Origin: Planctomycetota bacterium
GTDB lineage: Bacteria; Planctomycetota; UBA1135; GCA-002748355
Reading direction: 5' to 3'
DNA length: 64,000 nt
Assembly: GCA_011321845.1 (NCBI GenBank)
Contig: DROQ01000132.1
Location: 1,796 to 65,795, forward strand
Shown: piece by piece, positions 4,651 through 60,692 of the stretch
Position numbering within the stretch: position 1 is the stretch's first letter
How the letters are laid out: each line of letters opens with the position of its first letter
Position numbers and translations under genes: made by a program
Notes under the pieces: model-generated
The model's database searches: none
What the model was told of the DNA's origin: nothing
What the model saw: the letters and a program-made list of their open reading frames with translations, nothing else

Positions 4651-4873
4651 GGAAACTCCCCAGGCAGGGAAGCATGTTCCCTCTTCGAAAAGGCTCTACA
4701 TTCTCCTCAAGGGATTTCCCGGGGTTCCGGCTGGAGCAGCTCGTTCACGCTGCCTCCCAAGTTGTTCCTTGCCTGGGATCTCCAAAGGGTTAAACGTAAC
4801 CATGGAACAGGGTGGTCCACAATCCAGGTAAATCCCTTCCCACCTTGGTGCCGATGATATTCCCAGATGTTTC

Positions 4874-5632
4874 ATGAAACGCCCGGGTCCCCTCCCACAA
4901 GATCATGGGGAGCAAAAACCCCATTTGGGAGTGTGGGACTGCAAAATTATGAGCAAAACGCCCCAGAAGATCGACATTGTGCTTGTCTTTCACGGCATCG
5001 GCACCCCCCCGGCCGATTGCTTGGAGGCGGATCTTCCCTATTGGGTACAAGAAGAAAAATTCTTGCGGACCCTGGACATCGCGAAGGAGCGTGGGGACAC
5101 CCTCATCACCTTTGATGATGGGCTCCAATCGGACGTCCGCATCGCCATGCCCGCTTTGATCGAGAGAGGGCTTCCCGGAGTTTTTTTCCCCCTGACAGGG
5201 ATGCTGGGGAAACCGGGCTACCTGACCCGCGAAGAGCTCAAATCCCTGGCCGACCATGGGATGGTGGTCGGCACGCATGGCCATATGCACCTGGACTGGG
5301 CCAAGGTTCCCCGAGAACTCCGGGAAAAAGACATCCAGGATTCCTTGGAGATCATCGAGGAGATCTTGGGAACCCCATGCAAGGAGGCCGCCTTTCCCTT
5401 CGGCTCCTTTGATCGTCGGGTCCTCGCTTCCCTCAAGAAATTTGGAATCGAAAAGGCCTATTCTTGCAGCAGGGGCAAGACCAACTTGGCCAACTTTCTC
5501 ATCCACCGGACCTCGATCCGGGAGGTCACCGACCTGGACTGGATGTTTCAAAGCTTGGACAAGGAAAAGGGGATCCAAAAAATCAAACGCGGGGTCAAAC
5601 GCTTCCTCAGGGCCCATCTGCCTCCCTTTTGA
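4874..5632 (+). CDS. polysaccharide deacetylase (NodB homology) family protein
   Basis: Motifs ITFDDG and HGMVVGTHGHMH. Alternative start at ATG 4949. Confidence 0.8.
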   Translation: MKRPGPLPQDHGEQKPHLGVWDCKIMSKTPQKIDIVLVFHGIGTPPADCLEADLPYWVQEEKFLRTLDIAKERGDTLITFDDGLQSDVRIAMPALIERGLPGVFFPLTGMLGKPGYLTREELKSLADHGMVVGTHGHMHLDWAKVPRELREKDIQDSLEIIEEILGTPCKEAAFPFGSFDRRVLASLKKFGIEKAYSCSRGKTNLANFLIHRTSIREVTDLDWMFQSLDKEKGIQKIKRGVKRFLRAHLPPF

Positions 5633-5756
5633 CCGGCGATCCCGGTGTGGATCGGCCGCCCCCCTGCAGACCGGCTGTCCCAGTGTGGACTGGCCGCCCC
5701 CCTGTAGACCGGCTGTCCCGGTGTGGACTGGCCGCCCCCCTATAGACCGGCTTCCT
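5631..5756. repeat. 38-bp tandem repeat, 3 full units plus a partial one
   Basis: Units 5631-5668, 5669-5706 and 5707-5744 plus about 12 nt. Consensus GACCGGCTGTCCCRGTGTGGACTGGCCGCCCCCCTRTA. It starts within the stop codon of the deacetylase gene. Confidence 0.9.
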
Positions 5757-5896
5757 CGTGGAAGGGGTGGAGCGAGGGAGATGGGCGCAAAGCCCCCCGA
5801 GCGATCATCGAGCGACATTCCACCACAGGAATCCCGTTTCGCCTCACTCAGGAGGGTGGCTAAGATCCCAGGGCAGCCCCATCCTGGAGGAGAATC

Positions 5897-7273
5897 ATGG
5901 AAACGATCATCGAGCCATTCCGCATCCGGACCGTCGAAAGACTCCAAATGTCCACCGAGGAAGAAAGGATGGCGGCCCTGGAACGGGCTCATTTCAACCT
6001 CTTCTCCCTGCATTCCAAAGAGGTCTTGATCGACCTGCTGACCGATTCCGGGACCGGGGCCATGAGCACCAAGCAATGGGCAGCTCTGATGATGGGAGAC
6101 GAGAGCTACGCAGGGAGCGAGTCTTTCTTCGACTTGGAAAAGACGGTCCGCAAGCTCACGGGATACAAACACGTCATCCCGGTCCACCAGGGGAGGGCGG
6201 CGGAGCGCATCCTCTTTCAAACGCTCTGCGCCGAAGGAAAAAGGATCCCCAACAACACGCATTTTGATACGACCCGTGCCAACATCGAATTCACAGGAGC
6301 CGAGGCCATCGACCTCCCCGTGGACGGCGCCCTGGACCCGAGCAGGGAGGCCCCCTTCAAGGGCAACATGGATCTGGACAAGCTCGACCGCTTCCTGGAA
6401 GAGACTCCTACAGAGGAAGTTCCCTTTGGGCTGCTCACGATCACCAACAACACCACGGGAGGCCAACCAGTCTCGATGGAAAACATCCGAGAGGTCGCCA
6501 GGAGATACCACGCCAAGGGGATTCCCTTTTTCCTGGATGCAGCCCGCTTCGCGGAGAACGCCTTCTTTATCAAAAAACGGGAGCCGGGATACAAGGACCG
6601 CCCTCTCGACGAAATTGCCCTGGAGATGTTCAGCTACGCGGACGGATGCCTGATCTCCGCCAAAAAAGACGGCCTGGTCAACATCGGGGGACTTCTCGTC
6701 CTCAATGACGACGCACTCGCGGCCCAGGCGAAAAACCTCTTGATCCTGACCGAGGGGTTCCCCACCTACGGAGGCCTGGCCGGGAGGGACATGGCAGCCC
6801 TTGCCCAGGGTCTTCGCGAAGTCCTGGATGTGGACTACCTCGAGTACCGCCTGGCCAGCGCCCAGTACCTGGGTCGGGCGCTGACCTTCCTGGGGGTTCC
6901 CATTGTCAAACCCTGTGGGATCCACGCCATCTATGTCGACGCCCGGGCCTGGCTTCCTCAGATTCCCCCCAAAGAACTCCCCGGACAGTCCCTCTGTTGC
7001 GAACTCTATCTCCGAGGGGGAATCCGAGCTGTCGAGATCGGCACCCTGATGTTTGGAGGGACCGACCCCCAGACGGGGGAGCCGACTCCAGCCGACCTCG
7101 ACCTCGTTCGACTCACTCTCCCCCGGCGCGTTTATACTCAGAGCCATTTCGACTGGGTCATTGAGGTTTTCTCCGGGATCGCCCGAAATCGCGAAAAATT
7201 GAAGGGATACCGCATTCTCGAGGAGGCGCCTTTCCTGCGAGCCTTTACCGCCAAACTCGCCCCCATCCCCTAG
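5897..7273 (+). CDS. beta-eliminating lyase: tryptophanase / tyrosine phenol-lyase family (PLP-dependent)
   Basis: 458 aa. EPFRIRTVE, IDLLTDSGTGAMS, PLP-Lys motif SAKKDGLVNIGG, SYGGLAGRDM and RLTLPRRVYT. SD GGAGGAG upstream. Trp versus Tyr specificity cannot be decided by eye. Confidence 0.9.
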   Translation: METIIEPFRIRTVERLQMSTEEERMAALERAHFNLFSLHSKEVLIDLLTDSGTGAMSTKQWAALMMGDESYAGSESFFDLEKTVRKLTGYKHVIPVHQGRAAERILFQTLCAEGKRIPNNTHFDTTRANIEFTGAEAIDLPVDGALDPSREAPFKGNMDLDKLDRFLEETPTEEVPFGLLTITNNTTGGQPVSMENIREVARRYHAKGIPFFLDAARFAENAFFIKKREPGYKDRPLDEIALEMFSYADGCLISAKKDGLVNIGGLLVLNDDALAAQAKNLLILTEGFPTYGGLAGRDMAALAQGLREVLDVDYLEYRLASAQYLGRALTFLGVPIVKPCGIHAIYVDARAWLPQIPPKELPGQSLCCELYLRGGIRAVEIGTLMFGGTDPQTGEPTPADLDLVRLTLPRRVYTQSHFDWVIEVFSGIARNREKLKGYRILEEAPFLRAFTAKLAPIP

Positions 7274-7670: not shown

Positions 7671-8174
7671 ATGATCCAAATCGGAGAAAAAGGGCCCACC
7701 TTCAAGCTGGAGGACCACCTGGGCCGAACCGTGGACCTCCAGGACCTCCTGGGCAAAGGCCACGTCATGCTTCTTTTCTATCCCCTCGATTTCACTCCTA
7801 CCTGAAGCAAGGAAATCCCCGGAGCGGAAGCGATCAAGGATCGTTTCGCTGCGGCTCACACCTACGTGCTAGGTGTGTCAGTGGATTCCAAGTATTGCCA
7901 CAAGGCCTGGGCGGACAGCTTGGGAGGGGTCAGCTACCCTCTCCTGGCCGATTTCCATCCCAAGGGAGCCGTGGGGAAAGCCTACGGTGTCTATCTGGAA
8001 GACGCGGGGATCGACGACCGAGCGACCGTGATCCTCGATAAGGATGGGATCGTCCGCTACGCAGTTTCCGTCACCCCATCCGGCGAACGGGATATCCCCG
8101 GTCTCGCCGCGGAATGTGAAAAAATCGACCAGGAGTACGGCGCCGGGCTCGGTGATCTGCCTCCGATCGAATGA
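7671..8174 (+). CDS. peroxiredoxin (AhpC/TSA/BCP-like) with in-frame TGA at 7803-7805 at the peroxidatic Cys position; candidate selenoprotein
   Basis: One frame runs from ATG 7671: MIQIGEKGPTFKLEDHLGRTVDLQDLLGKGHVMLLFYPLDFTPT[TGA]SKEIPGAEAIKDRFAAAHTYVLGVSVDSKYCHKAW...RATVILDKDGIVRY. The family motif FYP.DFTP.C..E places Cys where the TGA sits. The track shows only the 3' part (7866..8174). Confidence 0.8.
7822..7856 (+). promoter_or_regulatory. candidate bacterial SECIS hairpin
   Basis: GCGGAAGCGATC-AAG-GATCGTTTCGCTGC forms 9 contiguous pairs (one G.U), extendable to about 12 with one bulge. The apical loop is about 30 nt after the UGA. Confidence 0.4.
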
Positions 8175-8502
8175 TCCAATGAGTACCGCTCGCCTCTTCG
8201 TTTTCGAAGGGCGAGCGGCCTCTGTTGGAACCGGCCCCCAAGCTCTCAAGTCGCTTCTCCAAAATCCAGACAAGGCGGGATCCCGGCCCGAACAGTTCCC
8301 GCGCAGCCTCCCAGACTCTCCGAGAAAAACCCCTTCCACATCGATTCATCCCATCCAATCGAAAACGCAGGAGGGCCAGAGCGACCAGCGCCTTCCACCG
8401 CCGCGAACCCTGCCCCGAAAAAGCCTCGGGAACTCTCCCCTCCGCCAGGTATCGCAGCAGTTCCAATCCCCAAGTCCCCGGGTTTTCTCCTCGTCTTCTC
8501 AT
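8071..8502 (-). CDS. hypothetical protein (doubtful)
   Basis: 143-aa ORF with a strong SD (AAGGAGGTGAG-ATG). However, its third-codon positions are unlike neighbouring genes, no family is recognisable, and it overlaps 104 nt of the Prx gene antisense. Confidence 0.25.
   Translation of the reverse strand: MRRRGENPGTWGLELLRYLAEGRVPEAFSGQGSRRWKALVALALLRFRLDGMNRCGRGFSRRVWEAARELFGPGSRLVWILEKRLESLGAGSNRGRSPFENEEASGTHWIIRSEADHRARRRTPGRFFHIPRRDRGYPVRRMG
8186..8218 (+). terminator. strong hairpin just after the peroxiredoxin stop (possible terminator, no U-tract)
   Basis: CCGCTCGCCTCTTCG-TTTT-CGAAGGGCGAGCGG: 14 bp with one bulged nt. It begins 12 nt after the stop codon. Confidence 0.45.
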
Positions 8503-8557
8503 CTCACCTCCTTGTCCACCACCTTCATAGACAAAGGAATCAGGCGAGAGAATCGTC

Positions 8558-10492
8558 TCAAATTTCTTCGAGATAGGTCTGTTCCTGGAGAGAATCCTTG
8601 AAGAGGCGAAGAAAGGACTGCAACTCGGCTTTTTGGATCCATCCTTTCCTGAGGGCCCCTTCAGCAGCTCTCCGGACTTTGAGCACGAGTTCCTCGGAGT
8701 TGTACTGAACGTAGCTCAAGACTTCGGCCAGGGAATCCCCCTCTACCACCTTTCCCAGGTCCAGCTTTCCCTCTGCATCCATTCGGACATGGACCACATT
8801 GGTGTCCCCGAAGAGGTTGTGAAGGTCTCCCAGGACCTCCTGATAGGCCCCCACCAGAAAGGCTCCCAGGAAATAGGGGTGTCCCTCTTTCTGCTCATGG
8901 ATGGGCAGGCTGTCCACCGCTCCATGCGAACCGATGAAGAGATCGATCTTCCCATCCGAATCGCAGGTCAGGTCGGCCAAAACCACATGCTGGCGGGGCT
9001 CCTCGCAAAGCCTCTGGATGGGCATCAACGGAAAGAGCTGCTTGACCGCCCAATGATCGGGAAGGGATTGAAACATCGAAAAGTTGCCGAAACAGGTTTT
9101 GCCCAGGCTCCGGCGGAGCGGTTCCAACTCTTCGGGCAAGACCTCCTCCTCCTGGGCCCTCTGAAAGACCCGGCGACAAACCGCCCAGAAAAGGTTCTCA
9201 CACTTGGCGCGTCCCTCAAGATCCAGGAAGCCGAGGGCGAACAGGGAGTTCGCCTCTTCCTTGAATTGGACGGCATCGTGGTAATTTTCGATGAAATGCT
9301 CTGAATCCGCTTCGCCCAAGAGTTCGTGAAATTTTCGCAGGATTTCAGGCGCATCCTCCCCGGGGTCGGGACAGGGGTCTTCTCCCAGGCCTCTTGACAT
9401 CCCCACCACATCGAAGATGAGCAGGGCATGATGGGCCACCAGGGCCCTCCCCGACTCGCTCACGATATGGGGATGAGGAACCCCCTCCTTGTCGCAGGCC
9501 TCTTCGATCGAAAACACCACATCGTTCGCATATTCTTGGAGGCTGTAATTCATGGAGGAGTGGGAACTGCTCTTGGATCCATCGTAATCCACCCCCAGTC
9601 CCCCTCCCACGTCGATCCAAGCCAGGGGTGCCCCCAGCTTTCGCAGCTCCACGAAAATCCGGCTCGCCTCCTTGAGCGCGGCTTTGATCGCCCGGATGTC
9701 CGTAATCTGCGATCCGATGTGGAAATGAAGAAGTTGGACCGCGTCCAGGAAACCCTCCGCTCGACAGGTCTCCACCACCTTGAGCAGTTCGCCCGCGGTC
9801 AGCCCGAATTTCGACCGGTCCCCGGAGGATTCATTCCACTTGCCCGCACCCTTGGAAGAGAGCTTGGCGCGAACCCCAAGGAGGGGACGTATCCCAAGCC
9901 TTTTGGCAAGGTCCAGACTGGGGCGCAGCTCCGCGAGCCGATCCAGAACAAGGAAAACCTTCTTTCCAAGTTGCCTCCCTCGGAGGGCCATTTCGATGAA
10001 TCCCGTGTCCTTGAACCCGTTGCAGACAATCAAAGAGTCCGGGTCCTCCTGCATTGCCAGAGCCAGCAGGAGTTCAGGCTTGCTCCCTGCTTCGAGCCCC
10101 AAGCCATGGGAGCGCCCAAAATGCACGATCTCCTCAATGACATGCCGCTGCTGGTTCACCTTGATGGGGAAAACGCCCCGATACCCTCCCCGATAGGAAT
10201 ACTCGGAGATCGCCCTCAAAAAGGCCTGGCTCACCTGACGGATTCGATCCTGGAGAATATCCCCGAACCGCAGCAGGAGGGGTGGTTTGAGACCCCTCTC
10301 CACCAGGTCCATGCTGAGTTCATAGAGGTCGATCGGGCTGGCCCCTTCCCCCCCGACCCGGACTTCGAGAGTCCCCTGCTCCGAGACCCCGAAGTACCCT
10401 TCCCCCCAGTCTGAGACGAGATAGAGTTTCGCGCTGTCCTGGGCCGTCCAGGGGCTCTTGGTAGGGGTCCCGTCCCGGACAGGTCTTTCCAT
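8558..10492 (-). CDS. speA: biosynthetic arginine decarboxylase
   Basis: SpeA-like N-terminus WGEGYFGV, PLLLRFGDIL and the PLP-site region GVFPIKVNQQRHV. Start trimmed to ATG 10492 (AAGGAGAAGAA-ATG), giving 644 aa. Confidence 0.9.
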   Translation of the reverse strand: MERPVRDGTPTKSPWTAQDSAKLYLVSDWGEGYFGVSEQGTLEVRVGGEGASPIDLYELSMDLVERGLKPPLLLRFGDILQDRIRQVSQAFLRAISEYSYRGGYRGVFPIKVNQQRHVIEEIVHFGRSHGLGLEAGSKPELLLALAMQEDPDSLIVCNGFKDTGFIEMALRGRQLGKKVFLVLDRLAELRPSLDLAKRLGIRPLLGVRAKLSSKGAGKWNESSGDRSKFGLTAGELLKVVETCRAEGFLDAVQLLHFHIGSQITDIRAIKAALKEASRIFVELRKLGAPLAWIDVGGGLGVDYDGSKSSSHSSMNYSLQEYANDVVFSIEEACDKEGVPHPHIVSESGRALVAHHALLIFDVVGMSRGLGEDPCPDPGEDAPEILRKFHELLGEADSEHFIENYHDAVQFKEEANSLFALGFLDLEGRAKCENLFWAVCRRVFQRAQEEEVLPEELEPLRRSLGKTCFGNFSMFQSLPDHWAVKQLFPLMPIQRLCEEPRQHVVLADLTCDSDGKIDLFIGSHGAVDSLPIHEQKEGHPYFLGAFLVGAYQEVLGDLHNLFGDTNVVHVRMDAEGKLDLGKVVEGDSLAEVLSYVQYNSEELVLKVRRAAEGALRKGWIQKAELQSFLRLFKDSLQEQTYLEEI

Positions 10493-10537
10493 TTCTTCTC
10501 CTTGCACGAAAAAAGGGCAGGAAAACACTAGCAAGCG

Positions 10538-11335
10538 ATGATGGAAGAAACCATTGGAGAAGCCCTGGTCGAAGTGCTGGTGGAACCCGACATCCACCGC
10601 AAGCTCAAGCTGGCGGAGGAGATCTGCAGGAGCGGGAATTTCCGGGTCAAGGAGATCCAAGGCCCGCCCATCCCCCCCCAGCCCGGAAGACCCAAGGATT
10701 GGAGGGTCCTGCCCACCGAAGAACTCCAAGAACGCCCAAGCTTGACCCAGGCGGATGGACGCCGAGCCCTGCTCCATTCGGTCGCCCATATCGAACTCTC
10801 CGCAGTGGAACTACCCATCCTCGCCATCCTGGAGTTCCCGGGAAGGGAAGCCGAATACTACCGGGACATGCTCTACATCATCGCCGAGGAGGTTCGCCAC
10901 ACGCGCTGGCTGATTCGAAGGCTCGAGGAATTGGGGGAGGAAATGGGATCCAGGTCCGTCCACCTCGGGCTGTGGAACACTGCTCGGGCTTATCCCGATC
11001 TCTGCGACCGCCTTGCGGTCGTCCCCAGGATCCTCGAAGCAAGGGGCCTCGACGTCAGCCACAAGATCCGGAGGCAGCTTGTGGGGGCGGGAGACCGGGA
11101 GTCCGCACGCATCCTCGAAGAGATCTATCTGGACGAAATCAAACACGTCGCCCTCGGGACCAAATGGTTTCGGAGGGTTTGTCGGGAACGGGGCCTTTCC
11201 CCGATCTCCCATTTCCTCTCCATATCCCGTAAATTCCAACCGAGCCGTCCGGTCGCCATCGACCGCGAGGGCCGCCGCCGCGCCGGTTTTTCCGAAGCGG
11301 AACTCGAGTTCGTCAAAGGGAAACATCAAACATGA
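10538..11335 (+). CDS. DUF455 ferritin-like family protein
   Basis: LHSVAHIELSAVEL, IAEEVRHTRW and LDEIKHVALG: paired E..H metal-site-like motifs as in DUF455. Confidence 0.75.
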   Translation: MMEETIGEALVEVLVEPDIHRKLKLAEEICRSGNFRVKEIQGPPIPPQPGRPKDWRVLPTEELQERPSLTQADGRRALLHSVAHIELSAVELPILAILEFPGREAEYYRDMLYIIAEEVRHTRWLIRRLEELGEEMGSRSVHLGLWNTARAYPDLCDRLAVVPRILEARGLDVSHKIRRQLVGAGDRESARILEEIYLDEIKHVALGTKWFRRVCRERGLSPISHFLSISRKFQPSRPVAIDREGRRRAGFSEAELEFVKGKHQT

Positions 11336-14135: not shown

Positions 14136-15851
14136 ATGAAGTCCCCCCTCCGATTCCTTCTTTCAGTCCTTCTTTTCTTTCCTTTCCTGGGAAGGGCCTT
14201 GGAAGCGCAAGGCGTCCCCCTCTCCAAGGACTCCGCCATGGGGGTCTGGCCCTGGCTTTCGGGAAGCAGGAACATCGATGGCTTCGCCGACGAGATCATC
14301 TCCAAAACCCTCAAGGCCGGTTTGGACACGATCTACATCAGTGTCTGGAGTACGACCGGATCCAAGACAGGCATCCTCCGCATCTACGACGAGGTGGGGA
14401 CCTGGAAGACCCAGAATGGGAAGATCGACCCAAGGATCCACCTCCGGGCCTTCATCCAAAAGGCCCACAAAGCCCACCTCCAGGTCATCGGCGTCATCAC
14501 CGTCTTCAACAGCAAAGGCCCCTTGCCCAGCGACCACGGACATCAGGATTTTCTGGCGAACACGGTCCTCCGCTATCTCTTCAACAGCTACGACAATCAG
14601 GGCAAACCCTTTTATGGCCTGGATGGTCTCGCCCTGGATTACATCCGATGGTTCGGAGGCAACCACAACCCCACCGAGATCAATCGCTTCCTCGACCTCG
14701 CCCGCAAGGAGATCGGTCCACGGCAGCTGCACGCCTACCTCTTCGCCGGGGCCTATGCCCTGGACGGAGGAAGCTACAACAACACCTTCCGGACCTATGC
14801 TCAGACCCTTTCCTACCTGAGCACCCACTTTGGACAGAACTGGGAGGACATGGCTAGGCGCCTCGACTGCATGCTTCCCATGACCTACACCGCGAACGGT
14901 CATGTCTATGGAACCAACCTCAAATATATGGAAGGCTATGTCGAGGTCGCCGCTCGGTACGCCGTCCAGGCGGTCAACCGAGTGCGGAGCGCCTGCCGGG
15001 TCATGCCCGCCATCCGCACCTGGAACAGCAGAGGGCAGACCACGACCCGTGCCACCGTGGAGGCATGCGCCCGGGGCGCCATGAAGGGCGGGGCGGATGG
15101 GTACATGGCATTTCGATACTTCACCGCGCGGAGTCATGCGGATTGGTTCCAGGGACTCGCCCGCTATGCCAACAAGGGAGCCGACCTCCCCATCGCGGAC
15201 CTGAGCGGGGGCAGCCAGGGCATGGTCGCCCGGGTGGACTCGAGCGGCTCGGGGCACGCCTCCCTCCCCCCCTCCCAGCTCTTCGCGCGCTATGACCTGG
15301 ATGGAGACGGACGGTTTGAAACCAATTTTTCCTCGCCCGGGATCAAATCCTGGACCCTCAAGAGCCCCAAAAAACGCAGGGTCCATCTTGAGATCCGGGA
15401 CAGCGCGGGGCATATCAACGTCACGGCCCTGGAGTTGGGGGGAGCCCCTACTCTTACACCGACCCAGGCCAGCCTCTCGGCGGCCAGGGGGGGCACCGTT
15501 CGCATGACCTACGGGCCGGGGAGCCCCTTCGCGGGGAGCTTCTACCTGACTTTCATCGGGATGTCGGGAACGAGCCCAGGGACCCCCTTGGGGAACTCGG
15601 TCCTCCTTCCCCTCAACTTGGACCTTCTGAGCAGCCAGGCCCTTGGCCTGGTCAACCAGCCTCCTTTCCTCTCCTTCTTCCACAAGGTAGGCTTCTTCGG
15701 CTTCGCCGCCCCCACGCTCGCCATCCCTGCCGGAATCCTCCCAAAATCCTTTGTGGGAAAGGACCTCAGCATCGCCGTCCTGGATCTCGGAGGAAAGAAC
15801 TTCGGGGTACGCTTCGCGAGCAACCCGATTCAGATCCGCATCCTCCCCTGA
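14136..15851 (+). CDS. secreted glycoside-hydrolase-like TIM-barrel protein with a lineage-specific C-terminal domain
   Basis: Signal MKSPLRFLLSVLLFFPFLGRALEA. Barrel-like segments DTIYISVW, HLQVIGVI and GLDGLALDYIRW. The family call is tentative. Confidence 0.55.
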   Translation: MKSPLRFLLSVLLFFPFLGRALEAQGVPLSKDSAMGVWPWLSGSRNIDGFADEIISKTLKAGLDTIYISVWSTTGSKTGILRIYDEVGTWKTQNGKIDPRIHLRAFIQKAHKAHLQVIGVITVFNSKGPLPSDHGHQDFLANTVLRYLFNSYDNQGKPFYGLDGLALDYIRWFGGNHNPTEINRFLDLARKEIGPRQLHAYLFAGAYALDGGSYNNTFRTYAQTLSYLSTHFGQNWEDMARRLDCMLPMTYTANGHVYGTNLKYMEGYVEVAARYAVQAVNRVRSACRVMPAIRTWNSRGQTTTRATVEACARGAMKGGADGYMAFRYFTARSHADWFQGLARYANKGADLPIADLSGGSQGMVARVDSSGSGHASLPPSQLFARYDLDGDGRFETNFSSPGIKSWTLKSPKKRRVHLEIRDSAGHINVTALELGGAPTLTPTQASLSAARGGTVRMTYGPGSPFAGSFYLTFIGMSGTSPGTPLGNSVLLPLNLDLLSSQALGLVNQPPFLSFFHKVGFFGFAAPTLAIPAGILPKSFVGKDLSIAVLDLGGKNFGVRFASNPIQIRILP

Positions 15852-16003
15852 ATGGGGGAGTAGGGGCCGCATGGGGGCCGTAACAAATCTATGGAATCCC
15901 TAATGTTGCCTTGCCAAGTGAAGTTTTCGGTTACACTAGGAATTCTTCTCATTTCCTTTCCTGAGTCTTTCCCCCTGGAATCCCTCCTCGGAGCCTCGGA
16001 CCA

Positions 16004-19005: not shown

Positions 19006-20019
19006 TCAAAGAAGGTCGGAAGGACTCTCGTGCGCCCTGAGAACATCGAGAACGTCTTCCACCCGAATGGATTCCATGCAGAGAGGTCCTTGGGGAAGCG
19101 AGCAAGAGGGTTTCCGACAAGGTCTGCAGGGAAGAGGGGTCTCCCCCTGGAGAACCCTCCCTCCCCGGGGACCCGTCCTCTCGGGATCCTGGGGGCCGAA
19201 CAGAAAGAGGGTCTCCGCCCCCGCGGCGTCCAGGACATGCATCGCCCCCCCGTCATGGCCGAGAGCCCGCCCTCCCGTTTCGCGGAGATGGGCCCCCAGG
19301 GCAACCAGCTCCTCCAACCCCCCTTCTCCTTCCTGGCGGAGACAGGAAACCCAAGGAGGGAGGACCAAGCTCCTCTCCCTAGGCCCAAGGAGCACCAGGG
19401 CGGGCCCAGGGAGCCTCCGATAAAGTGCGATGATACGCCGCAGGGGCCAAGCCCTTGGATCCGAGGCCGCTCCAGCGACCAGAACATCCAAGGGTGCTTC
19501 CCCGGCGAAGCCCAACTTCTCGAGGGTCTTCCGCAGCCGGACCCGGGCGGCGGAACTCGGAAAGAGATAGGGCGGTGGAGGAAGAGGGGGGAGGGCCTCC
19601 TCCAGGGCGAAGCAGGCCAGTTCCCAGGCACGCTCCGCCATCCCCCTGGTTGCGGAGGGCGCCATGCGCTCCTCCCACAGCAAACCGGCCCATGGCTCCC
19701 TCAGCTCGGGCCGGGCAAAACCCACCACCCGCTTCAAACCGAGGACCTTGGCAAGAAAAGCGCTCTTCCAATTCCCCTGGAGATCCAAACCCAGATCAAA
19801 ACCTTGACGCCCCTTCCCTCGCAACGCCCAAGAGCCCTTCCATCCCCTCCTCCAGATCAGCGGGGAAACCCAAGATCCCAGCAGGGACTCGAGTCCCGCG
19901 AAACGATCCTCCAGGAGCCAGGAGACTCGATGCCCTCCCGCCTCCAAGGAACCCGCCAGCGGAAGAGCCTGCACAATATCCCCCAGGCTCGAAAGGCGAA
20001 GAATGAGGACCCGACTCAC
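19006..20019 (-). CDS. glycosyltransferase family 9 (heptosyltransferase-like)
   Basis: N-terminus VSRVLILRLSSLGDIVQALP is typical of GT9. GTG 20019 overlaps the upstream TGA (GTGA coupling). Confidence 0.75.
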   Translation of the reverse strand: MSRVLILRLSSLGDIVQALPLAGSLEAGGHRVSWLLEDRFAGLESLLGSWVSPLIWRRGWKGSWALRGKGRQGFDLGLDLQGNWKSAFLAKVLGLKRVVGFARPELREPWAGLLWEERMAPSATRGMAERAWELACFALEEALPPLPPPPYLFPSSAARVRLRKTLEKLGFAGEAPLDVLVAGAASDPRAWPLRRIIALYRRLPGPALVLLGPRERSLVLPPWVSCLRQEGEGGLEELVALGAHLRETGGRALGHDGGAMHVLDAAGAETLFLFGPQDPERTGPRGGRVLQGETPLPCRPCRKPSCSLPQGPLCMESIRVEDVLDVLRAHESPSDLL

Positions 20020-21524
20020 TTGGGAGTCCTCTTGGAGAGGACAAGTGTTTTCCTGCCCACCCGAAAGCGCTCCCATTCCTGGGTCTTTGCGGGAAAGGGA
20101 TGCTCCCCCGGCACGCCTTCCTCCCAAAGGATCCAAGGCTCTCCCCTGTAAGGAGATTGGAAAAACTCGCTTTGCCGGATCTGGGGTCCCAGCTTCCAGA
20201 GGAGGTAGGGGGGAACATGCCCCCAGGCGAACACAGGCTGCTTGCCCACAATGCCGGCGAGATGACGCAGCCCTCCCACGGGACTCCTTTTGGGGACGGC
20301 ATTCCAGGCCTTACGATCCACGCCCAGAAACAGGACACCGCAGACTCCCAGCGCCAAGACAATGGGGCGAGGCCCACGAAGAAGGGCAGCGAGGGGGAGC
20401 AAGAGCAAGGCCCAGGGGAGGACACGCATCCAGGATGGGTGCTGGAACAGGAGAACGACCCCAGCCACGAGTCCCAGCCCTCCGAGGACCCGCCGGAGGA
20501 AGAAGGCTGGATCGTGTTTCCCCGGCGGGAAGGCCCCGCGGCGCCAAAGGTCGTAGAGCACCAAAAGCCCTGGGAGCAGGGCGGGAAGCACGTAACGGGT
20601 AGGGCGATGGGGCGTGAAGAGAAGGGCCAGAACCCCCAGGGCAAAAGAGAATCCCAGCGCGCGAAGGCCAGGCTCAGGAGGCTCCTTGGGGCGCCTCCAA
20701 CCCCCGAGAAAAAGAAGAAGGGGAGGGAGCCCCATCGCGCAAACCGAGAGGAGGAAGAGCGGAGCGCTCTTGAAAAAATGCCAGAGGGGGAAACCGCTGT
20801 TCCTTCCCACCGTCTCCCGTTCCCAAATGGTGAGGAGCTGCCCCCAGTCGAGCCCATGGGAGAAAAGGAGCGCCAACCATAGGGCGGAAGGAAGCAGAAG
20901 CCCCAGTCCCCAGGCGCCGATCCCCACCCACCGCTTGCTCCGCAGCAAAAACCAGAGGGGGCCGGCAAAAAGGATGGGTGCCATTGGCCCTTTGATCGCG
21001 ACAGCGAGGCCCCCGACCAGCCCCGCCCCGAAGAAGACGCCCCAGCTCCTCCCCGGAGCCCGAAGCAGGGAAGCGAGCAGGAGGAGGGCGCTCCCAGTGA
21101 GGGCGGCGAACCCCCCATCCATCTCGGCCGAGGTCCCGAATTTGAAAAGAAGGGGATGGGTGAGAAAGAGGGCGAAGCAAAACCAGCGGTCCTTCCCGGG
21201 CCATCCCTGCTGCGCGAGGAAACGCGAAAGAAGAGCAAAGAAGAGAGCGAAAAGGAGCAGGGAAGGCAAGCGAGCGGCGAAGCGGTTCTTGCCGAAAACC
21301 AGCATGGAGAGGGCTCCAAGCTGGTAATGGAGGGGAGGCTTGGTCAGGGTCGCCTCGCCCCCCAAGCGAGGGAGGACATAGTCTCCCGATTCGACCATGT
21401 TCCGGGCAATCACCGCCCGGCGGGCTTCGGTGCCTTCGAACTCCCCGATTGGGAGAAAGGGTCCCCAGGCGAGGAGTGTCAGTAGAAAAAAGAGAAGGCC
21501 CTCGAACCGTGCCCGGCCCATCAA
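20016..21524 (-). CDS. ArnT/PMT-like glycosyltransferase family 39 (GT-C) membrane protein
   Basis: EARRAVIARNMVESGDYVLPRLGGEATLTKPPLHY followed by about 12 hydrophobic helices. Confidence 0.8.
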   Translation of the reverse strand: MMGRARFEGLLFFLLTLLAWGPFLPIGEFEGTEARRAVIARNMVESGDYVLPRLGGEATLTKPPLHYQLGALSMLVFGKNRFAARLPSLLLFALFFALLSRFLAQQGWPGKDRWFCFALFLTHPLLFKFGTSAEMDGGFAALTGSALLLLASLLRAPGRSWGVFFGAGLVGGLAVAIKGPMAPILFAGPLWFLLRSKRWVGIGAWGLGLLLPSALWLALLFSHGLDWGQLLTIWERETVGRNSGFPLWHFFKSAPLFLLSVCAMGLPPLLLFLGGWRRPKEPPEPGLRALGFSFALGVLALLFTPHRPTRYVLPALLPGLLVLYDLWRRGAFPPGKHDPAFFLRRVLGGLGLVAGVVLLFQHPSWMRVLPWALLLLPLAALLRGPRPIVLALGVCGVLFLGVDRKAWNAVPKRSPVGGLRHLAGIVGKQPVFAWGHVPPYLLWKLGPQIRQSEFFQSPYRGEPWILWEEGVPGEHPFPAKTQEWERFRVGRKTLVLSKRTPK

Positions 21525-23361: not shown

Positions 23362-25548
23362 TTAGGGGGATTGGACCCGAATGCGGGCATCGACGGCCAC
23401 CGTGGGAACACCTTTTTCTCCGGCGATCAGAGGATTCAGTTCGCACTCCTGGACCTCGGGGAAATCCAAGGCCAACTGGTTCAAACGAAGCAAAACCTCC
23501 TGCACCTTGGCCTTGTCCACCCCTGGCGCTCCCCGGTAGGGAGCCAAGAGCGCCCGTCCGCGGAGCCCGTCCATCATCTGGAGGGGGTCCACGTCCCGCA
23601 GCGGCCCCAACCGGACGACCACGTCCTTGAGAACCTCGACATGGACGCCTCCCAGTCCCAGGGCGAAGAGAGGTCCGAAGTAAGGATCCCTCGTAAAGCC
23701 CAAAAGGAGTTCCCGATGTCCCTTCGCCATGGCCTGGACTTCGAATTGCAGACCCGGATGCCTTCTGCCCAGGCGGCGGCGCATGTTTTGGATGGTTTCA
23801 TAGACCTCGTCTCCATTGAGGAGGCCCACGACGACCGCTCCCTGGTCGGTCTTGTGCACCAGACCCGCTCCCGTCGCCTTGACCGCAACGGGGAACCCGA
23901 CCCGGTGCGCGGCCGCCACCCCCTCCTCCGGAGAAGAGACCTGCACCGTGGAGACAAAGGGGATGCCATACTCCGCGAGAATCCCCCTCACGGCGCTCCC
24001 CTCGAGCCATCCCTCGGAATCCACCGCGGCCTTCCCAAGCAGCCTCCGAGCCTTCCTGGTCTGGACCCGATAGGTCTTGGGCACCCCGGTCTCCCGGGCG
24101 CACATTTGCCGGTAACGGATGAGGCCCGAGATCGTGTCGGCAGCCTCCTCCGGGAAGCTGAACACAGGAATCCCCGCGTTCTTCAGAAGTTCCACGGCCT
24201 CGTCCCCCCGCTGCTTCCCCATGATGCAGGTCACGACCGGCTTCCCATGCCCCTGCGTCTCCTCGAGAATGGTTCGAGCCACGGCCTCCGCATCGATCAT
24301 CACGGGAGAGACAAAGAGGACGAGCAGGGAGTCCACTCCAGGATCTCGCACCACCGTCCGAAGAACCTTGCGATATCGTTCGGGACCCGCGGAAGCGATC
24401 AAGTCAATGGGGTTCTGGATGCTGGCTTCGGGAGGAAGGACCGCGGCCAGCCGTTTCCGTGTCGAAGCCTGGAAGGTGGCGAGGGGAATCCGCCGCCCCT
24501 CCAGCGCGTCCGTTGCGAGGATCCCCGGCCCCCCCGCGTTGGTCACGACCGCCACCCGGTCCCCCTGGGGGATGGGTTGGTGCAGGAGAGCCCCTGCCAT
24601 GTTGAACATCTCCCGCAAACTCTCCGCCCGCAAAACCCCGGTCTGGAAGAGGAAGGTCTCCACCGCCTTGTCCTCCCCCGCGATGCTCCCCGTGTGGGAC
24701 CCGGCCGCCCGTGCGCCCGAGACCGTTCTCCCGGACTTCACGGCGATGATCGGCTTTTTGCATTTCAACTCTTCGGCAATCCGGCGAAAACGCTCGGCCT
24801 CCCCAAAAGACTCGAGATAGAGGAGGATCAACCGCACATTGGGGTCGTTGGCCCAGTACTCGCAGAGGTCGTCCGCGCCCACGTCGGCTCGGTTTCCCAC
24901 GCTGGCGAACATCCGAATCCCCAGCCCGATTTCCCGGGCATCCGAAAGGATGGCCTCCCCCAAAGCTCCCGACTGGGAAACGAAACCGATGTTCCCTGGG
25001 ATCGGCACCGAGGCGGCGAAGGAAGCATTCATCCGGACCTCAGGCTCCGTGTTCAGGATCCCCATGCAGTTGGGACCGATCATTCGAATCCCCGCCTTCT
25101 TGCAGATCCGGACCACCTCCTCCTCCAGGGCGGTTCCCTTGCCGCCAATCTCCCGGAACCCCGCGGAAATAATGACGATCCCTTTCACCCCCTTTTTGGC
25201 ACAGGAACGCACGACCTTGGGAACCAGGAGAGAGGGCACCACGATGATGGCCAGGTCGATGGGTTCCGGGATGGCCTCGAGGGAGGGATAGCAGGGAATG
25301 GAATGGACCACCTTGGCCTTGGGGTTGACCGGAAAGACCGGCCCCGCGAAACCTTGCCCCACCAGGTTGGCCACGATCTCGTAGCCAATGGACTGGGGAT
25401 TCCGCGAGGCACCCAGGACGGCGATCGAACGGGGCCTGAAGAGGCAGTCGAGATTGGTCGCCCCCCCTCCCCTCTTCCTGGAAGGCTTCCTCTTGGAAGC
25501 CGATGTTTTCGAAGCCCCTGCTCCGGGGTCCCTCTTTCGCGTGGCCAC
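23362..25548 (-). CDS. acetate--CoA ligase (ADP-forming) family protein, fused CoA-binding/ligase-CoA/ATP-grasp domains
   Basis: FRPRSIAVLGASRNPQSIGY, VFPVNPK, GPNCMGI, HTGS(I)AG and a C-terminal ATP-grasp. GTG start with a basic 35-aa N-terminal extension, so the true start may lie further downstream. Confidence 0.85.
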   Translation of the reverse strand: MATRKRDPGAGASKTSASKRKPSRKRGGGATNLDCLFRPRSIAVLGASRNPQSIGYEIVANLVGQGFAGPVFPVNPKAKVVHSIPCYPSLEAIPEPIDLAIIVVPSLLVPKVVRSCAKKGVKGIVIISAGFREIGGKGTALEEEVVRICKKAGIRMIGPNCMGILNTEPEVRMNASFAASVPIPGNIGFVSQSGALGEAILSDAREIGLGIRMFASVGNRADVGADDLCEYWANDPNVRLILLYLESFGEAERFRRIAEELKCKKPIIAVKSGRTVSGARAAGSHTGSIAGEDKAVETFLFQTGVLRAESLREMFNMAGALLHQPIPQGDRVAVVTNAGGPGILATDALEGRRIPLATFQASTRKRLAAVLPPEASIQNPIDLIASAGPERYRKVLRTVVRDPGVDSLLVLFVSPVMIDAEAVARTILEETQGHGKPVVTCIMGKQRGDEAVELLKNAGIPVFSFPEEAADTISGLIRYRQMCARETGVPKTYRVQTRKARRLLGKAAVDSEGWLEGSAVRGILAEYGIPFVSTVQVSSPEEGVAAAHRVGFPVAVKATGAGLVHKTDQGAVVVGLLNGDEVYETIQNMRRRLGRRHPGLQFEVQAMAKGHRELLLGFTRDPYFGPLFALGLGGVHVEVLKDVVVRLGPLRDVDPLQMMDGLRGRALLAPYRGAPGVDKAKVQEVLLRLNQLALDFPEVQECELNPLIAGEKGVPTVAVDARIRVQSP

Positions 25549-25637
25549 GGCCTTCTCCCTTGGTGAAAAAGGCGAAGACTATAGCGCCCCCAAGGAGGGG
25601 ACGGAAGGAGGAGCCCCCGGAAGGGGGGGCCATGTCC

Positions 25638-26580: not shown

Positions 26581-28212
26581 TCATCCCCCCTTTGGAGACG
26601 CCGGAGGCAGGGCGAGACCATGCAAAGCGGCACGCCGGATCCGGAGGACGGTGGTGAGGCCGGGATCGCCCTTCTCCCTCCGAAGGCGTCGGAAGAGGAC
26701 CTGGGTCTGACGAAAGAGCCCGTCCTCGATCACATGGCTAACCCCCTGGCTCCTTAGGGTTTCGACCCAATTCCGCCCTTCCTTGTAGGCTGGCAGGGGC
26801 AGACAGGGGATGCCCGTCATCCAAGCGACCAGCCTGGGTTTTCGGGCGGCGAGCAGAGTGGGCCTGGGCAAAACCTTTCCTCGGCGCAGGGCCTGGAGCA
26901 AAAGGAGAAAATCGCCGTAGGCCTCGCGAACCGCGGAGCCCCTGGGACCCGACAGGAGAAGACCCTCCTCCCAGTGGTTCATGCGCACTTTTTCCAAGCC
27001 CAGGATCACCGCCTCATTCGGGAGCACGTCCCGATCCTTCCAACGGTCTCGATAGAGATCGGTGGAGGCATAGAAATGGAAGAGGGCGAGCGCGAGGGCC
27101 GAAACCGTGAGTGCCTGCCCCTCCTGGGAACTGCGCGGCAGGGGGGCCTTGGACCAGAGGAAGGAGAGGCCCCTCAGAAAATAGGCCGAGAGGAGAGGAA
27201 AGACCGGAATCAGGTAGCGGAGGGAGCGCATGGGAGCCAGGAGGGCCAGGAGAAGGCTGAACAACAGGACCGAATCCATGAGTCTCCAGCCCTGGGATCG
27301 AATGGCGACACCCCAACCGAAGAGAACCAGGAGGGTGAGGCCCCCAGTCAGGAAAACACTCGCGGCGACCTGGGGGCTACCCCCGATGCTGGCTCCGATG
27401 GCTTGGAAATAGAACGACGCGGACCCGAGAAGCTCCGAGATTCGCCCCCCCTGGAGGGCCGCCCATTCGCGTCCATAGCTCCAGGTCCCACCACCGGAGG
27501 TTTCGGCCACAAGGAACCAGCCAAGGACGGGCAGGGCTCCAGCCAGTCCCCAGACCAGAGGACCGCGCTGCCGGGTCTGGCGCCAGACCCGGAGAGCCGA
27601 GAGCCCGAGGGCGAGGAAGAGCACCATCCCCCCCACCCTCATGGAAAACCCCAGGAGGGCGAACACGAAGAGCGCCGGCCAGGGAATGCCGCGGGCGGCG
27701 CAAGGCTGTCCTCCTTTTTCCTTTCCCGCCTCCTCGGTCCCGAACCAAAGGAACAGCCCCAAGAAGAGCAGATAGGGTCCCTCGGATTGGATCCGCACCG
27801 ACTGCAGCAGGAAGGGAGTGAGCCCGAGGCTCATTCCGACGGCCCCGAGCCCAATCCTTCTCCCGAACCTGGCAGAGAGCGCTCGTCCCATTCCATAGAG
27901 CCCGAGGGCGGAGCAGAGGAGCACCAGGATTTTGAAGGGGATGTAACTGCCACCCCCGAACACCAGCCATACCCCCGCGAGGAGCAGAGGGAAACCGGGA
28001 GGGTAGTGCAGGTGGATGGGAGTCGTGGGGAGATGGGTGTCCCGGTATCCCACCCCCTCGGCCAGGGCGCGGCCGAGGCTCAGGTACTGGGCGCTGTCTC
28101 CTCCCATATCCCCAAGGGAGGGAGAAATCAGGAGCAGGCCGAGGATCAGGGTCAGGGAGGCCAGACCAAGGCTCGGACCATCCAGGGGGAACCGTCGGAA
28201 AATTGAGGACAT
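26581..28212 (-). CDS. GT-C fold (family 39/83-like) membrane glycosyltransferase
   Basis: GGDSAQYLSLGRALAEGVGYRD...YPPGFPLL N-terminal loop followed by many transmembrane helices. Confidence 0.6.
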   Translation of the reverse strand: MSSIFRRFPLDGPSLGLASLTLILGLLLISPSLGDMGGDSAQYLSLGRALAEGVGYRDTHLPTTPIHLHYPPGFPLLLAGVWLVFGGGSYIPFKILVLLCSALGLYGMGRALSARFGRRIGLGAVGMSLGLTPFLLQSVRIQSEGPYLLFLGLFLWFGTEEAGKEKGGQPCAARGIPWPALFVFALLGFSMRVGGMVLFLALGLSALRVWRQTRQRGPLVWGLAGALPVLGWFLVAETSGGGTWSYGREWAALQGGRISELLGSASFYFQAIGASIGGSPQVAASVFLTGGLTLLVLFGWGVAIRSQGWRLMDSVLLFSLLLALLAPMRSLRYLIPVFPLLSAYFLRGLSFLWSKAPLPRSSQEGQALTVSALALALFHFYASTDLYRDRWKDRDVLPNEAVILGLEKVRMNHWEEGLLLSGPRGSAVREAYGDFLLLLQALRRGKVLPRPTLLAARKPRLVAWMTGIPCLPLPAYKEGRNWVETLRSQGVSHVIEDGLFRQTQVLFRRLRREKGDPGLTTVLRIRRAALHGLALPPASPKGG

Positions 28213-58623: not shown

Positions 58624-59024
58624 AGAAAACTCCTAAATGGTTGAGAAAGATTGAGCCTGAAAATTTCTAGGCCCAAGCTCCAAAGCAAAACCCTGAAATG
58701 GGGAGAAAAGAACGCAAGAAATTGCAGAAAAAGGAGAGGAAACTGAAAAAGGATTTTAAATCCATTTTCCGTGAAACAAAACCACCATCTTTAAATCCCC
58801 AATCGACCTGAAAGCGGGAACGTACGAAGAAAAGGGGGACACCGAGATGTGGAAACATGGGAGAAAAGAGGAGATGAGGTCGTGGATCCGGCCGACCACC
58901 TGGAGCGGAACCTGGAAATTCCCAAGAAAGGGGGCAAAGTTCAGCCATTCCCCCTCGATGAAATCGTGGGCCAGCCTTGTATTCATGCAACACCAACACG
59001 GGATTTCCCGAGGAAACGTCGTCG

Positions 59025-60635
59025 ATGAGCGCACGCTTGCAGAGTCAGGTCCGATCCAACAGTCCGGAGTTCCAGGAGAACGCCGCATTCCATCGTGGTC
59101 TCGCGGAGGAGTTGAAACAAAAGGCAGCGCAGGTCCGGCGAGGAGGCTCCGAGAGAGCCGTCAAGCTCCACCACTCCCGGGGTAAGCTCCTTGCCCGAGA
59201 ACGCATCGATCGGATCATCGACCCAGGGAGCCCCTTTTTGGAACTCTCCCCCCTTGCCGCCTGGGGTCTCTATGACAACAAGGCCCCCTCGGCCGGGGTC
59301 GTGACGGGGATCGGGCGGATCCACGGGCACGAGGTCATGTTCGTAGCCAACGACGCAACCGTGAAGGGGGGCTCCTATCTCCCCATGACAGTCAAGAAAC
59401 ACATCCGCGCCCAGGAAATCGCTCTGGAGAACCACCTCCCCTGCCTCTATCTCGTGGACTCGGGCGGCGCCTTCCTCCCCCTTCAGGCTGAGGTCTTCCC
59501 CGACCGGGACCACTTTGGGCGGATTTTTTACAACCAGGCGCGCATGTCGGCCCTCGGCATCCGGCAAATCGCCTGCGTCCTGGGCTCCTGCACGGCGGGC
59601 GGAGCCTATGTCCCGGCGATGAGCGACGAGACCATCATTGTGCAAAAGCAGGGGACCATCTTTTTGGGGGGGCCTCCCCTGGTCAAGGCAGCCACCGGGG
59701 AGGAGGTCAGCGCGGAGGAACTGGGAGGGGGGGATCTCCATGCGCGCACCTCCGGGGTCGTGGACCATCTCGCCCCGGACGAGGAGAGCGCCCTCGAGCT
59801 TTGCCGGGACATCTTCGCCCACATCAACCTTCGGAAGACGGTTCCGGTGCAAACCCAGGCTCCCGAACCTCCCGCTTTCGACCCCGAGGACCTCTACGGA
59901 ATCATCCCCAAGAATCCGAGGCAACCCTACGACGTCCGCGAAGTCATCGCCCGCCTGGTGGATGGGAGCGTCTTCCACGAGTTCAAAAGCCTCTATGGAA
60001 CCACTCTGGTGACCGGCTTCGCTCACATCCACGGGTACCCGGTCGGGATCGTGGCCAACAATGGAATCCTCTTTTCCGAGAGTGCCCAAAAAGCCGCCCA
60101 CTTCGTCGAACTCTGCTCCCAGCGCAAAACCCCCCTGGTCTTCCTGCAAAACATCACAGGGTTCATGGTGGGCAGCAAATACGAAGCAGGAGGTATCGCC
60201 AAGGACGGAGCCAAGATGGTCCAGGCCGTTGCGACCGCTCCTGTCCCCCGTTTCACGATCATCATCGGGGGATCCTTCGGGGCAGGGAACTACGGGATGT
60301 GCGGCAGAGCCTACCAGCCTCGGCTCCTCTTCATGTGGCCCAACGCCCGGATCTCGGTCATGGGCGGCGAACAGGCCGCCGGGGTGCTTCTCACCGTCAA
60401 AAAGGACCAGCTCGCCCGCGAGGGCAAGAGCATGACTCCCGAGGAAGAGGAGCAGCTCAAGGCCCCCATCCTCGAAAAATACGAGCAGGAAGGGAGCCCC
60501 TATTACTCCACAGCCAGGCTCTGGGATGACGGTATCCTGGACCCCGTGGACACCCGCAAGGTCCTGGGGCTCAGCCTCTCTATGGCCTTCAACGCCGGCA
60601 TTCCCGACTGGCAGGCACCGGTTTTCCGGATGTAG
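59025..60635 (+). CDS. liuB: methylcrotonoyl-CoA carboxylase beta subunit (carboxyltransferase)
   Basis: 536 aa. [50 protein letters not shown] and [16 protein letters not shown]. The context includes a hydratase and biotin carboxylase. Confidence 0.9.
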
Positions 60636-60692
60636 GGGGGAGAGCTTGGAATTGAGAGGGAAGAGTCGGAACCGTTGCATCAGGAGCCAAGG

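Follow-up and report, generated by a model that had tools for sequence, protein, structure and literature searches.

A Predicted Selenocysteine-Containing AhpE-Type Peroxiredoxin from Planctomycetota and the Two Hairpins That Follow Its In-Frame UGA

Introduction

When the codon for a catalytic residue is replaced by a stop, either the gene has been broken or the stop codon is read as an amino acid. The question arises at positions 7671–8174 of a 64-kb stretch of Planctomycetota DNA (the whole stretch that was analysed, here called the window; all features described lie on its forward, or plus, strand), where a peroxiredoxin frame carries TGA at the position of its peroxidatic cysteine. A preliminary description of the locus proposed a selenoprotein missed by gene calling. 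The analysis presented here supports that proposal, corrects it in part, and raises a further question, namely, which of two RNA hairpins downstream of the UGA directs the insertion of selenocysteine (Sec).

Sec-containing peroxiredoxins with a TxxU active site have been catalogued since 2004–2005 (PMC1088965, PMC2398784, PMC5029168, PMC13188914). They ranked second in abundance among the selenoprotein families of the Sargasso Sea, where 43 genes were counted (PMC1088965), contributed 253 sequences in GOS (PMC2398784), had reached 91 genes, from 78 genomes, by 2016 (PMC5029168), and stand among the established families in a 2026 review (PMC13188914). Sec peroxiredoxins are therefore not rare, as had been supposed in the preliminary description, but belong to the commonest bacterial selenoproteins (PMC1088965, PMC2398784, PMC5029168). 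One TxxU peroxiredoxin has been characterised biochemically (Sohling et al. 2001, as cited in PMC13188914). Sec use is documented in Acidobacteria and in the Planctomycetes Gemmata obscuriglobus, Isosphaera pallida, and planctomycete KSU-1 (PMC5029168 Table S2).

Results

An Intact Frame with a Single Internal Stop

Translation from the ATG at 7671 to the true stop, a TGA at 8172–8174, gives one complete frame of 167 codons (7671–8174, terminal stop included), corresponding to 166 residues plus a predicted Sec45. The sole internal stop is codon 45 (TGA, 7803–7805), which lies in the context FYPLDFTPT*SKEIPG. The sequence and coordinates in the preliminary description, in which the frame was open from 7671 and broken only at 7803–7805, are thus correct, as is its observation that the list of open reading frames holds only the last 102 aa: the single entry in this frame is 7866–8174, with a GTG start. 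The orthologues described below all start at an M-I-x-x-G equivalent to 7671. GC content at third codon positions (GC3) is 0.73 upstream of the UGA and 0.69 downstream of it; the value for other genes is 0.70. A scan of the window for other TGA-split frames with high GC3 retained 27 of 318 candidates and is too noisy for interpretation in DNA of 60% GC.

Two other features flank the gene. A further in-frame ATG lies upstream, at 7632, and a 9-bp inverted repeat, read from the sequence, follows the stop at 8186–8218. The repeat has no T-run and was not called by a terminator scan; it may be a structure at the 3' end of the transcript.

Relationship to AhpE

For protein searches, Cys was placed at the internal stop (residue 45). 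The product matches the AhpC-TSA profile PF00578 with 111.5 bits (cut-off 26; E = 3e-32), and residues 4–130 align with profile positions 1–123 of 124. The best sequence matches in the PDB are entries for Mycobacterium tuberculosis AhpE (Rv2238c), which fill the top seven places (E = 4e-25, residues 1–141), and Cys45 of AhpE aligns exactly with residue 45 of the window protein. The AlphaFold model of a Cys-containing homologue (P0012, 57% identical to the window protein; pLDDT 96) matches AhpE in Foldseek with TM scores of 0.93–0.95, a comparison that concerns the homologue and not the window protein itself. The universal peroxiredoxin features are present. In peroxiredoxins at large the active site has the form Pxxx(T/S)xxC, with the peroxidatic residue opening helix 2. 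The active-site motif P38-L-D-F-T42-P-T-U45 (7782–7805), seen in translation and alignment, has the form PxxxTxxU that is named for Sec peroxiredoxins (PMC13188914, PMC1088965), and the conserved catalytic Arg117 (codon 8019–8021) is invariant in alignments A1 and A4. Cys stands in the Sec column in homologues P0001, P0003, P0004, P0008, P0009, P0011, and P0012 as well as in AhpE. The alignment with Cys-containing peroxiredoxins, which the preliminary description had advised, thus puts Cys in the UGA column and bears out its contention that the stop exactly replaces the catalytic cysteine.

The top NCBIfam match is to the model of the PrxU selenoprotein (NF040737), at 89 bits, well short of its 270-bit cut-off. 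This score, taken together with AhpE as the best relative, indicates that the gene is an AhpE-type peroxiredoxin and not a PrxU equivalog; peroxidase activity is predicted. Eubacterium acidaminophilum PrxU is likewise a peroxiredoxin with a peroxidatic Sec, but its model spans 233 profile positions, whereas the window protein is of the 167-residue AhpE type. AhpE (PDB 1XXU, 1XVW, 4X0X) shares with the window protein the length class and the peroxidatic position 45; it differs in having Cys instead of Sec, is about 35% identical, and lacks the Cys76 and Cys149 of the window protein. The titles of PDB entries 1XXU and 1XVW describe it as a 1-Cys enzyme.

Cys149 (codon 8115–8117), in the last helix, may serve as a resolving or partner thiol. 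It is found in 57 of 81 orthologues and Cys76 in 56; the window protein has both, and L080 is among the members that have neither. Since the two cysteines are common but not universal, a resolving-Cys step appears possible but would not define the group.

AhpE is reduced by the glutaredoxin-like partner mycoredoxin-1. In many of the orthologues, which are about 250 aa long, a glutaredoxin-like domain with a CGFS or CPFC motif is fused to the C-terminus, and in one Cys form a separate glutaredoxin gene overlaps the stop of the peroxiredoxin gene. These fusions and the overlapping gene point to a reductant of the glutaredoxin type. Compared with such peroxiredoxin–glutaredoxin hybrids, the window gene is of the stand-alone type: its product lacks a C-terminal extension, as expected of AhpE-type enzymes, which have about 150–165 residues. 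A glutaredoxin gene is not found 3' of it either, and 8175–8557 contains no credible open reading frame. An open reading frame at 8044–8601 was considered as a degenerate glutaredoxin domain and rejected, its translation being rich in Ser, Pro, and Arg and devoid of a CxxC/S motif.

Conservation of the UGA and Selection on Both Sides

The protein search returned 4,415 relatives, of which the 80 best in species-representative genomes were combined with the window gene to give a set of 81 genes for comparison at the DNA level. The aligned codon is TGA in 79 of the 80 best relatives, and in 80 of 81 genes when the window is included; the sole exception, L039, has GGA. The orthologues are labelled as Planctomycetota, Acidobacteriota, Myxococcota/Polyangia, Binatia, Verrucomicrobiia, SAR324, Bdellovibrionota, and others. 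No second stop occurs within 150 codons in any of the 81. The base that follows the UGA is invariably A (81/81), and Ser46, AGC in the window (7806–7808), is encoded by AGC or AGT in 74 of 74 cases and never by TCN.

The nearest relative, from a Planctomycetota metagenome-assembled genome (L001), is 87% identical in DNA, with 63 codons that differ from those of the window. Nine of the differences upstream of the TGA are synonymous and one is non-synonymous; downstream, the corresponding numbers are 47 and six. This pattern indicates that both halves of the gene are under purifying selection. Two further sequences, L089 (GCA_027003555.1) and L090 (an ENA metagenome), are 99.6–99.9% identical to the window and have the same TGA. 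Decayed copies in close relatives, which the preliminary description had held would tell against a selenoprotein, were not found; selection is purifying on both sides of the codon and extra stops are absent.

A reassigned genetic code does not account for these observations. TGA is the commonest stop in the window, where it ends 16 of 34 long open reading frames, and the gene's own terminal TGA is replaced by TAA in L001. Thus the organism uses the standard code, and this single UGA is special.

RNA Structure Downstream of the UGA

The preliminary description had placed a stable hairpin at 7822–7856, with its apical loop about 30 nt past the UGA. Folding yields essentially that structure, here called H1, at 7819–7854. 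It comprises 15 pairs with a bulged G7827, a G-G mismatch, and an AAG loop (7836–7838) 30 nt past the UGA, and has a free energy of -21.2 kcal/mol (z = -3.6 against dinucleotide shuffles). Past it lies a second conserved hairpin, H2 (7857–7877), which that description had missed. H2 has 8 pairs and a CGUGC loop (7865–7869) 59 nt past the UGA; it folds at -10.5 kcal/mol (z = -2.9), and folding, covariation, and codon constraint all contribute to its definition. Its consensus in the family reads GAYACCCA-GGUYC-UGGGURUC. Taken as a whole, the 90 nt past the UGA fold at -37 kcal/mol (z = -3.3), compared with z = -0.8, -1.0, and +0.9 for three 90-nt segments elsewhere in the gene. The minimum-energy fold of the window sequence also contains a possible, weakly supported closing helix around H1 and H2 (7811–7818 with 7883–7889), and 69% of its cells pair in a subgroup alignment of 25 Planctomycetota-type sequences.

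RNAalifold applied to all 81 sequences gave no consensus structure, because the register of H1 shifts between lineages. Folding of individual sequences, permutation of synonymous codons, and counts for named structures were used in its place. When synonymous codons were permuted within each of the 81 genes and 45-nt windows were folded along the gene, the H1 window gave the lowest mean z (-1.71), and 54% of the genes fell below -1.64. The H2 windows came second, with a mean z down to -1.17, and the remainder of the gene lay between -0.8 and +0.5. H1 and H2 are thus the most structure-selected stretches of the gene.

The sequence of H1 varies freely while its pairing is kept: between the window and L001, the four substitutions in the H1 region are a compensatory change of a G-C to an A-U pair (two substitutions), a change to a G-U wobble, and a change in the loop. 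A count of pairs in fixed register, 58% of cells in the 25-sequence subgroup, is uninformative on covariation in H1. H2 is conserved at the nucleotide level and nevertheless covaries. One pair is C-G in 45 genes, U-A in 15, and G-C in three, and at another (70–78) the window and L001 display a double change of C-G to U-A. In H2, 84% of cells pair, a share that drops to 49% or less if the partner strand is shifted, and the covariation score was reached by none of 500 shuffles. Codon choice is constrained as well: Gly68 is GGT in 62 of 79 sequences, although other conserved glycine columns have only 6–20 GGT among 55–81 sequences, Thr64 is ACC in 73 of 80, and Val66 is GTY in 61 of 71.

Rfam gave no match at gathering thresholds in the whole window and none at E ≤ 10 in 7760–7920. 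Elsewhere in the fetched loci, the H2 core CCCAGGTNCTGGG occurs at one extra site, at the end of an unrelated gene in L064, which has no in-frame TGA upstream and is taken as chance.

Discussion

A Probable Selenoprotein and Its Proposed Mechanism

Taken together, the data make it very probable that 7671–8174 encodes one functional AhpE-type peroxiredoxin with Sec at peroxidatic residue 45. The UGA at 7803–7805 would be decoded by Sec-tRNASec delivered by SelB, with SelB tethered to structured mRNA that starts 13 nt past the UGA. H1 would stand at the mRNA entrance when the UGA occupies the A site, and H2 would present a G-U loop typical of SelB-binding hairpins. In the folded protein, the U45 selenolate, accompanied by Thr42 and Arg117 in the PxxxTxxU pocket, would attack the peroxide to give a selenenic acid. 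An external thiol partner, perhaps a glutaredoxin-like protein of the kind fused in many relatives, would then regenerate U45, or Cys149 may act before it does.

Which Hairpin Is the SECIS Element?

In the published model of the bacterial SECIS element (bSECIS), a hairpin with a minimum free energy of -7.5 kcal/mol or lower carries, 16–37 nt from the UGA, an apical loop of 3–9 nt whose first two positions include a G, in the pattern N1-G-[G|U]-N-N2 (PMC13188914). The Escherichia coli element begins 11 nt past the UGA and has conserved loop bases G23 and U24; the contact sites of SelB are given as U17 and G23 (PMC8659212). The distance modelled for SelB on the ribosome is about 13 nt (PMC4605307). 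Many predicted bacterial elements are mutually dissimilar, and some fall outside the model (PMC13188914).

Neither hairpin of the window satisfies these constraints alone. H1 has the right distance and lacks the required loop G; H2 has the G and the energy, but its loop is 59 nt away. The suggestion of the preliminary description that H1 lies where bacterial SECIS elements sit therefore holds for distance and fails for the loop, in which the model requires a G (PMC13188914). The discrepancy extends to the family, as H1 fits the full rule in 34 of the 81 genes and has 51 different loops.

The distribution of hairpins among the 81 genes bears directly on their roles. In 56 genes H2 is intact and a short hairpin nearer the UGA, with a GGA-type loop at a distance of about 20 nt, is lacking; in 16 this proximal hairpin is present and H2 absent; three genes have both, and six have neither. 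Most genes of the last class fall one pair short of the threshold or have some other proximal hairpin with a G in its loop, as does L052, with a GUC loop at 23 nt. The inverse pattern gives a Fisher p of 5e-7, as obtained with a simpler classifier and uncorrected for phylogeny. In a rough tree built by neighbour joining, about five separate lineages show the proximal-only state. The peptide T-Q-V-L-G, which H2 encodes, is variable both in these lineages and in the Cys homologues, being replaced by Q-P-L-G, L-A-C-G, L-V-C-A, or Q-V-A-A; H2 is intact in one of the six Cys homologues examined.

These observations suggest, tentatively, that the recoding signal may be a composite SECIS element of two hairpins, in which the loop of distal H2 binds SelB and H1 serves as a folded spacer. 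The SelB-binding loop, G-G-U-Y-C in the family and C-G-U-G-C in the window, would then lie on a hairpin 59–60 nt past the UGA, and the variable H1 would fold at the mRNA entrance and bring H2 within reach. Once H1 is folded, the base of H2 is only about 15 unpaired nucleotides away from the UGA, a distance compatible with the 13 nt or so of the ribosome model (PMC4605307). Lineages that gain a proximal hairpin with a GGA-type loop would subsequently lose H2.

It may equally be supposed that H1 alone is the SECIS element, read by a SelB with relaxed loop needs, and that H2 is accessory or unrelated; this, too, is a serious possibility. H1 shows the strongest selection for structure, lies at the canonical 16–37 nt, and has been kept through compensatory change between the window and L001, and the frequent unlikeness of predicted bacterial elements to one another (PMC13188914) would accommodate its loop. 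[quoted passage not shown] It also counts against this view that H2 is lost almost exclusively in lineages whose proximal hairpin, some 20 nt past the UGA, has a GGA-type loop, and that H2 is intact in only one of six Cys homologues.

A composite element, if real, would constitute a distinct bacterial class beyond the reach of single-hairpin search tools. The 81-gene alignment amounts to a natural experiment in the requirements of a bacterial SECIS element, and the two selected hairpins seem to be partly interchangeable across lineages.

Other Explanations of the UGA

The UGA might instead be recoded by something other than Sec, either as Trp or Cys by a near-cognate tRNA or as Cys through tRNASec, with the hairpins acting as stimulators of read-through or as pause sites. 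The lack of a G in the H1 loop of the window, where a SelB site would have one, is consistent with this idea, as is the failure to find Sec machinery in the 64-kb window. Searches by tblastn with E. coli SelA, SelB, and SelD detected none of the corresponding genes, either in the window or across about 1.2 Mb of DNA flanking the genes of the relatives, the one match being a weak, GTPase-like one in L037; Pfam scans of 30 large open reading frames of the window revealed no sel domains, and no tRNA was found in its 64 kb. The sel genes are not to be expected in a 64-kb piece of a multi-megabase genome, however, and their absence there is uninformative. Against recoding without Sec stands the chemistry of the enzyme, which would be dead with a peroxidatic residue other than Cys or Sec, such as Trp. 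Moreover, the H2 loop fits the G-[G|U] pattern of SelB-type loops (PMC13188914), the status of TxxU peroxiredoxins as selenoproteins is accepted, and Sec users are known among the phyla in question. This explanation is accordingly judged improbable.

A pseudogene or an assembly error, in which a Cys codon (TGY) has become TGA through a nonsense change or faulty base calling, would account for the splitting and truncation of the gene by gene callers, and the GGA of L039 could be cited in its favour. It is nonetheless highly improbable. The TGA recurs at this codon in 80 of the 81 orthologues, which come from several phyla, and is shared by three independent assemblies; purifying selection is strong on both sides of it; frameshifts and extra stops are absent; and a selected RNA structure follows it directly. 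In our view the comparative data already refute this explanation, and a pseudogene, a sequencing error, and a reassigned code can each be regarded as excluded for practical purposes.

Gene calling presents the locus as two products, with a peptide of 44 aa that stops at the UGA and a separate 102-aa protein initiated at GTG 7866. This reading is scarcely credible. It would break the thioredoxin fold in two and deprive the enzyme of its active-site motif; GTG 7866 falls within the H2 loop and is the codon of the conserved Val66; and the 20 codons from the UGA to the GTG are conserved as protein while varying through compensatory changes in the RNA.

Relation to Known Systems

The Sec-containing enzyme predicted here differs in no essential way from the Prx (TxxU) family catalogued by Kryukov, Zhang, and Gladyshev, with which it shares the PF00578 domain, Sec in a PxxxTxxU motif, bacterial origin, Cys-containing homologues, and abundance in environmental assemblies. 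As that family has been known since 2004–2005, the window gene is a new, unannotated member of a known selenoprotein family. The description of its branch as AhpE-type may be new.

The more interesting novelty may be a two-hairpin recoding element that breaks the distance rule for single hairpins; no description of such an arrangement was found in a limited search of the literature. The downstream RNA resembles a canonical bSECIS, as exemplified by E. coli fdhF and the consensus of Zhang and Gladyshev, in being a structure within the coding sequence directly past the UGA, and the family H2 loop G-G-U-Y-C fits N1-G-[G|U]-N-N2. In contrast to the consensus of one hairpin with its loop at 16–37 nt, H1 of the window has no loop G, and the G-U loop is found on a hairpin 59 nt away, with H1 in between. 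To specialists the selenoprotein itself will be ordinary; the misannotation of the whole branch and the idea of a composite SECIS element merit a short follow-up.

Annotation of the Gene in Public Data

This branch of Sec peroxiredoxins spans many uncultured phyla and is miscalled throughout public data. Since NCBIfam has no model that captures it, both the antioxidant capacity and the selenium dependence of these organisms are under-counted. A large share of the 4,415 relatives are proteins of 100–120 aa or 200–205 aa that start just past the Sec column, and are truncated gene calls. Others are full length with Trp in the Sec column, one such cluster having 551 members; the Trp is attributed to TGA being read with translation table 4. 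The expectation in the preliminary description that standard pipelines would truncate the gene is confirmed by public calls, which take the form of the 102-aa fragment, of a full-length protein with Trp, or, as in the near-identical L089, of a 44-aa open reading frame followed by one of 102 aa.

Conservation around the Predicted Sec Codon

The predicted Sec codon of the AhpE-type peroxiredoxin gene (TGA 7803–7805) is followed by A in the window gene and in all of its 80 best relatives (81 of 81 sequences; window 7806–7808, column 13 of alignment A2). The codon for Ser46 that begins with this base is AGC or AGT in 74 of 74 sequences, and TCN is never used. The UGA-A context is conserved in a way not accounted for by the protein sequence. 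Farther downstream, the GTG at 7866–7868, adopted by gene finders as the start of a 102-aa fragment, encodes the conserved Val66 and lies within the apical loop of H2, the second of the two hairpins that follow the UGA.

The sole orthologue without TGA among the 81 sequences encodes protein P0006, from a Planctomycetota MAG (JAWKUH010000009.1, locus L039), where GGA (Gly) replaces the Sec codon at L039:10133–10135. Both H1 and H2 are intact in this locus despite the substitution. The GGA reflects either a base-call error or a mutation, inactivating or recoding, that arose very recently.

Public Protein Calls and Domain Fusions

Full-length public calls from nine protein clusters (P0005, P0007, P0010, P0013, P0014, P0021, P0022, P0030, and P0078) carry Trp at the Sec column, as in DWTPTWSKE; 551 member sequences stand behind P0078 and 108 behind P0030. 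We take the Trp to be the product of gene callers reading TGA under translation table 4.

In most non-Planctomycetota orthologues the Sec-peroxiredoxin is fused to a C-terminal glutaredoxin-like domain bearing a CGFS, CGHS, or CPFC motif. Examples are L002–L019 and further loci with a length near 250 codons, and proteins P0017, P0025, P0046, and P0116. At L085, which encodes a form with Cys at the Sec column, the glutaredoxin has a gene of its own, which overlaps the stop codon of the peroxiredoxin gene. Another Cys form, P0003 on the Armatimonadota contig L082, retains both hairpins; immediately downstream of it, on the opposite strand, is a second AhpC-TSA gene of 152 aa (L082:1774–2232, minus strand).

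Surroundings of the Gene in the Window

Seven long ORFs of the window (507–785 aa) match no Pfam family at E ≤ 1e-5: 4790–7147, 14163–15872, 19796–21319, 26581–28212, and 58983–60680 on the minus strand, and 23371–25566 and 40630–42690 on the plus strand. Given the 60% GC of this DNA, some of them may represent the wrong strand or frame.

Twelve nucleotides past the peroxiredoxin stop codon lies a 9-bp inverted repeat with a 15-nt loop (CCGCTCGCC ... GGCGAGCGG, 8186–8218). It lacks a T-run, and the terminator scan gave no call there; the repeat may form a structure at the 3′ end of the transcript. A 185-aa, S/P/R-rich ORF (8044–8601, plus strand) that overlaps the 3′ end of the gene looks non-coding, and the intergenic stretch 8175–8557 contains no glutaredoxin remnant. 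The next gene, convergent with that of the peroxiredoxin, encodes a biosynthetic arginine decarboxylase (8558–10789, minus strand; Orn_Arg_deC_N, Arg_decarb_HB, and Arg_decarbox_C). The same neighbor accompanies the peroxiredoxin of L089, the near-identical locus of assembly GCA_027003555.1.
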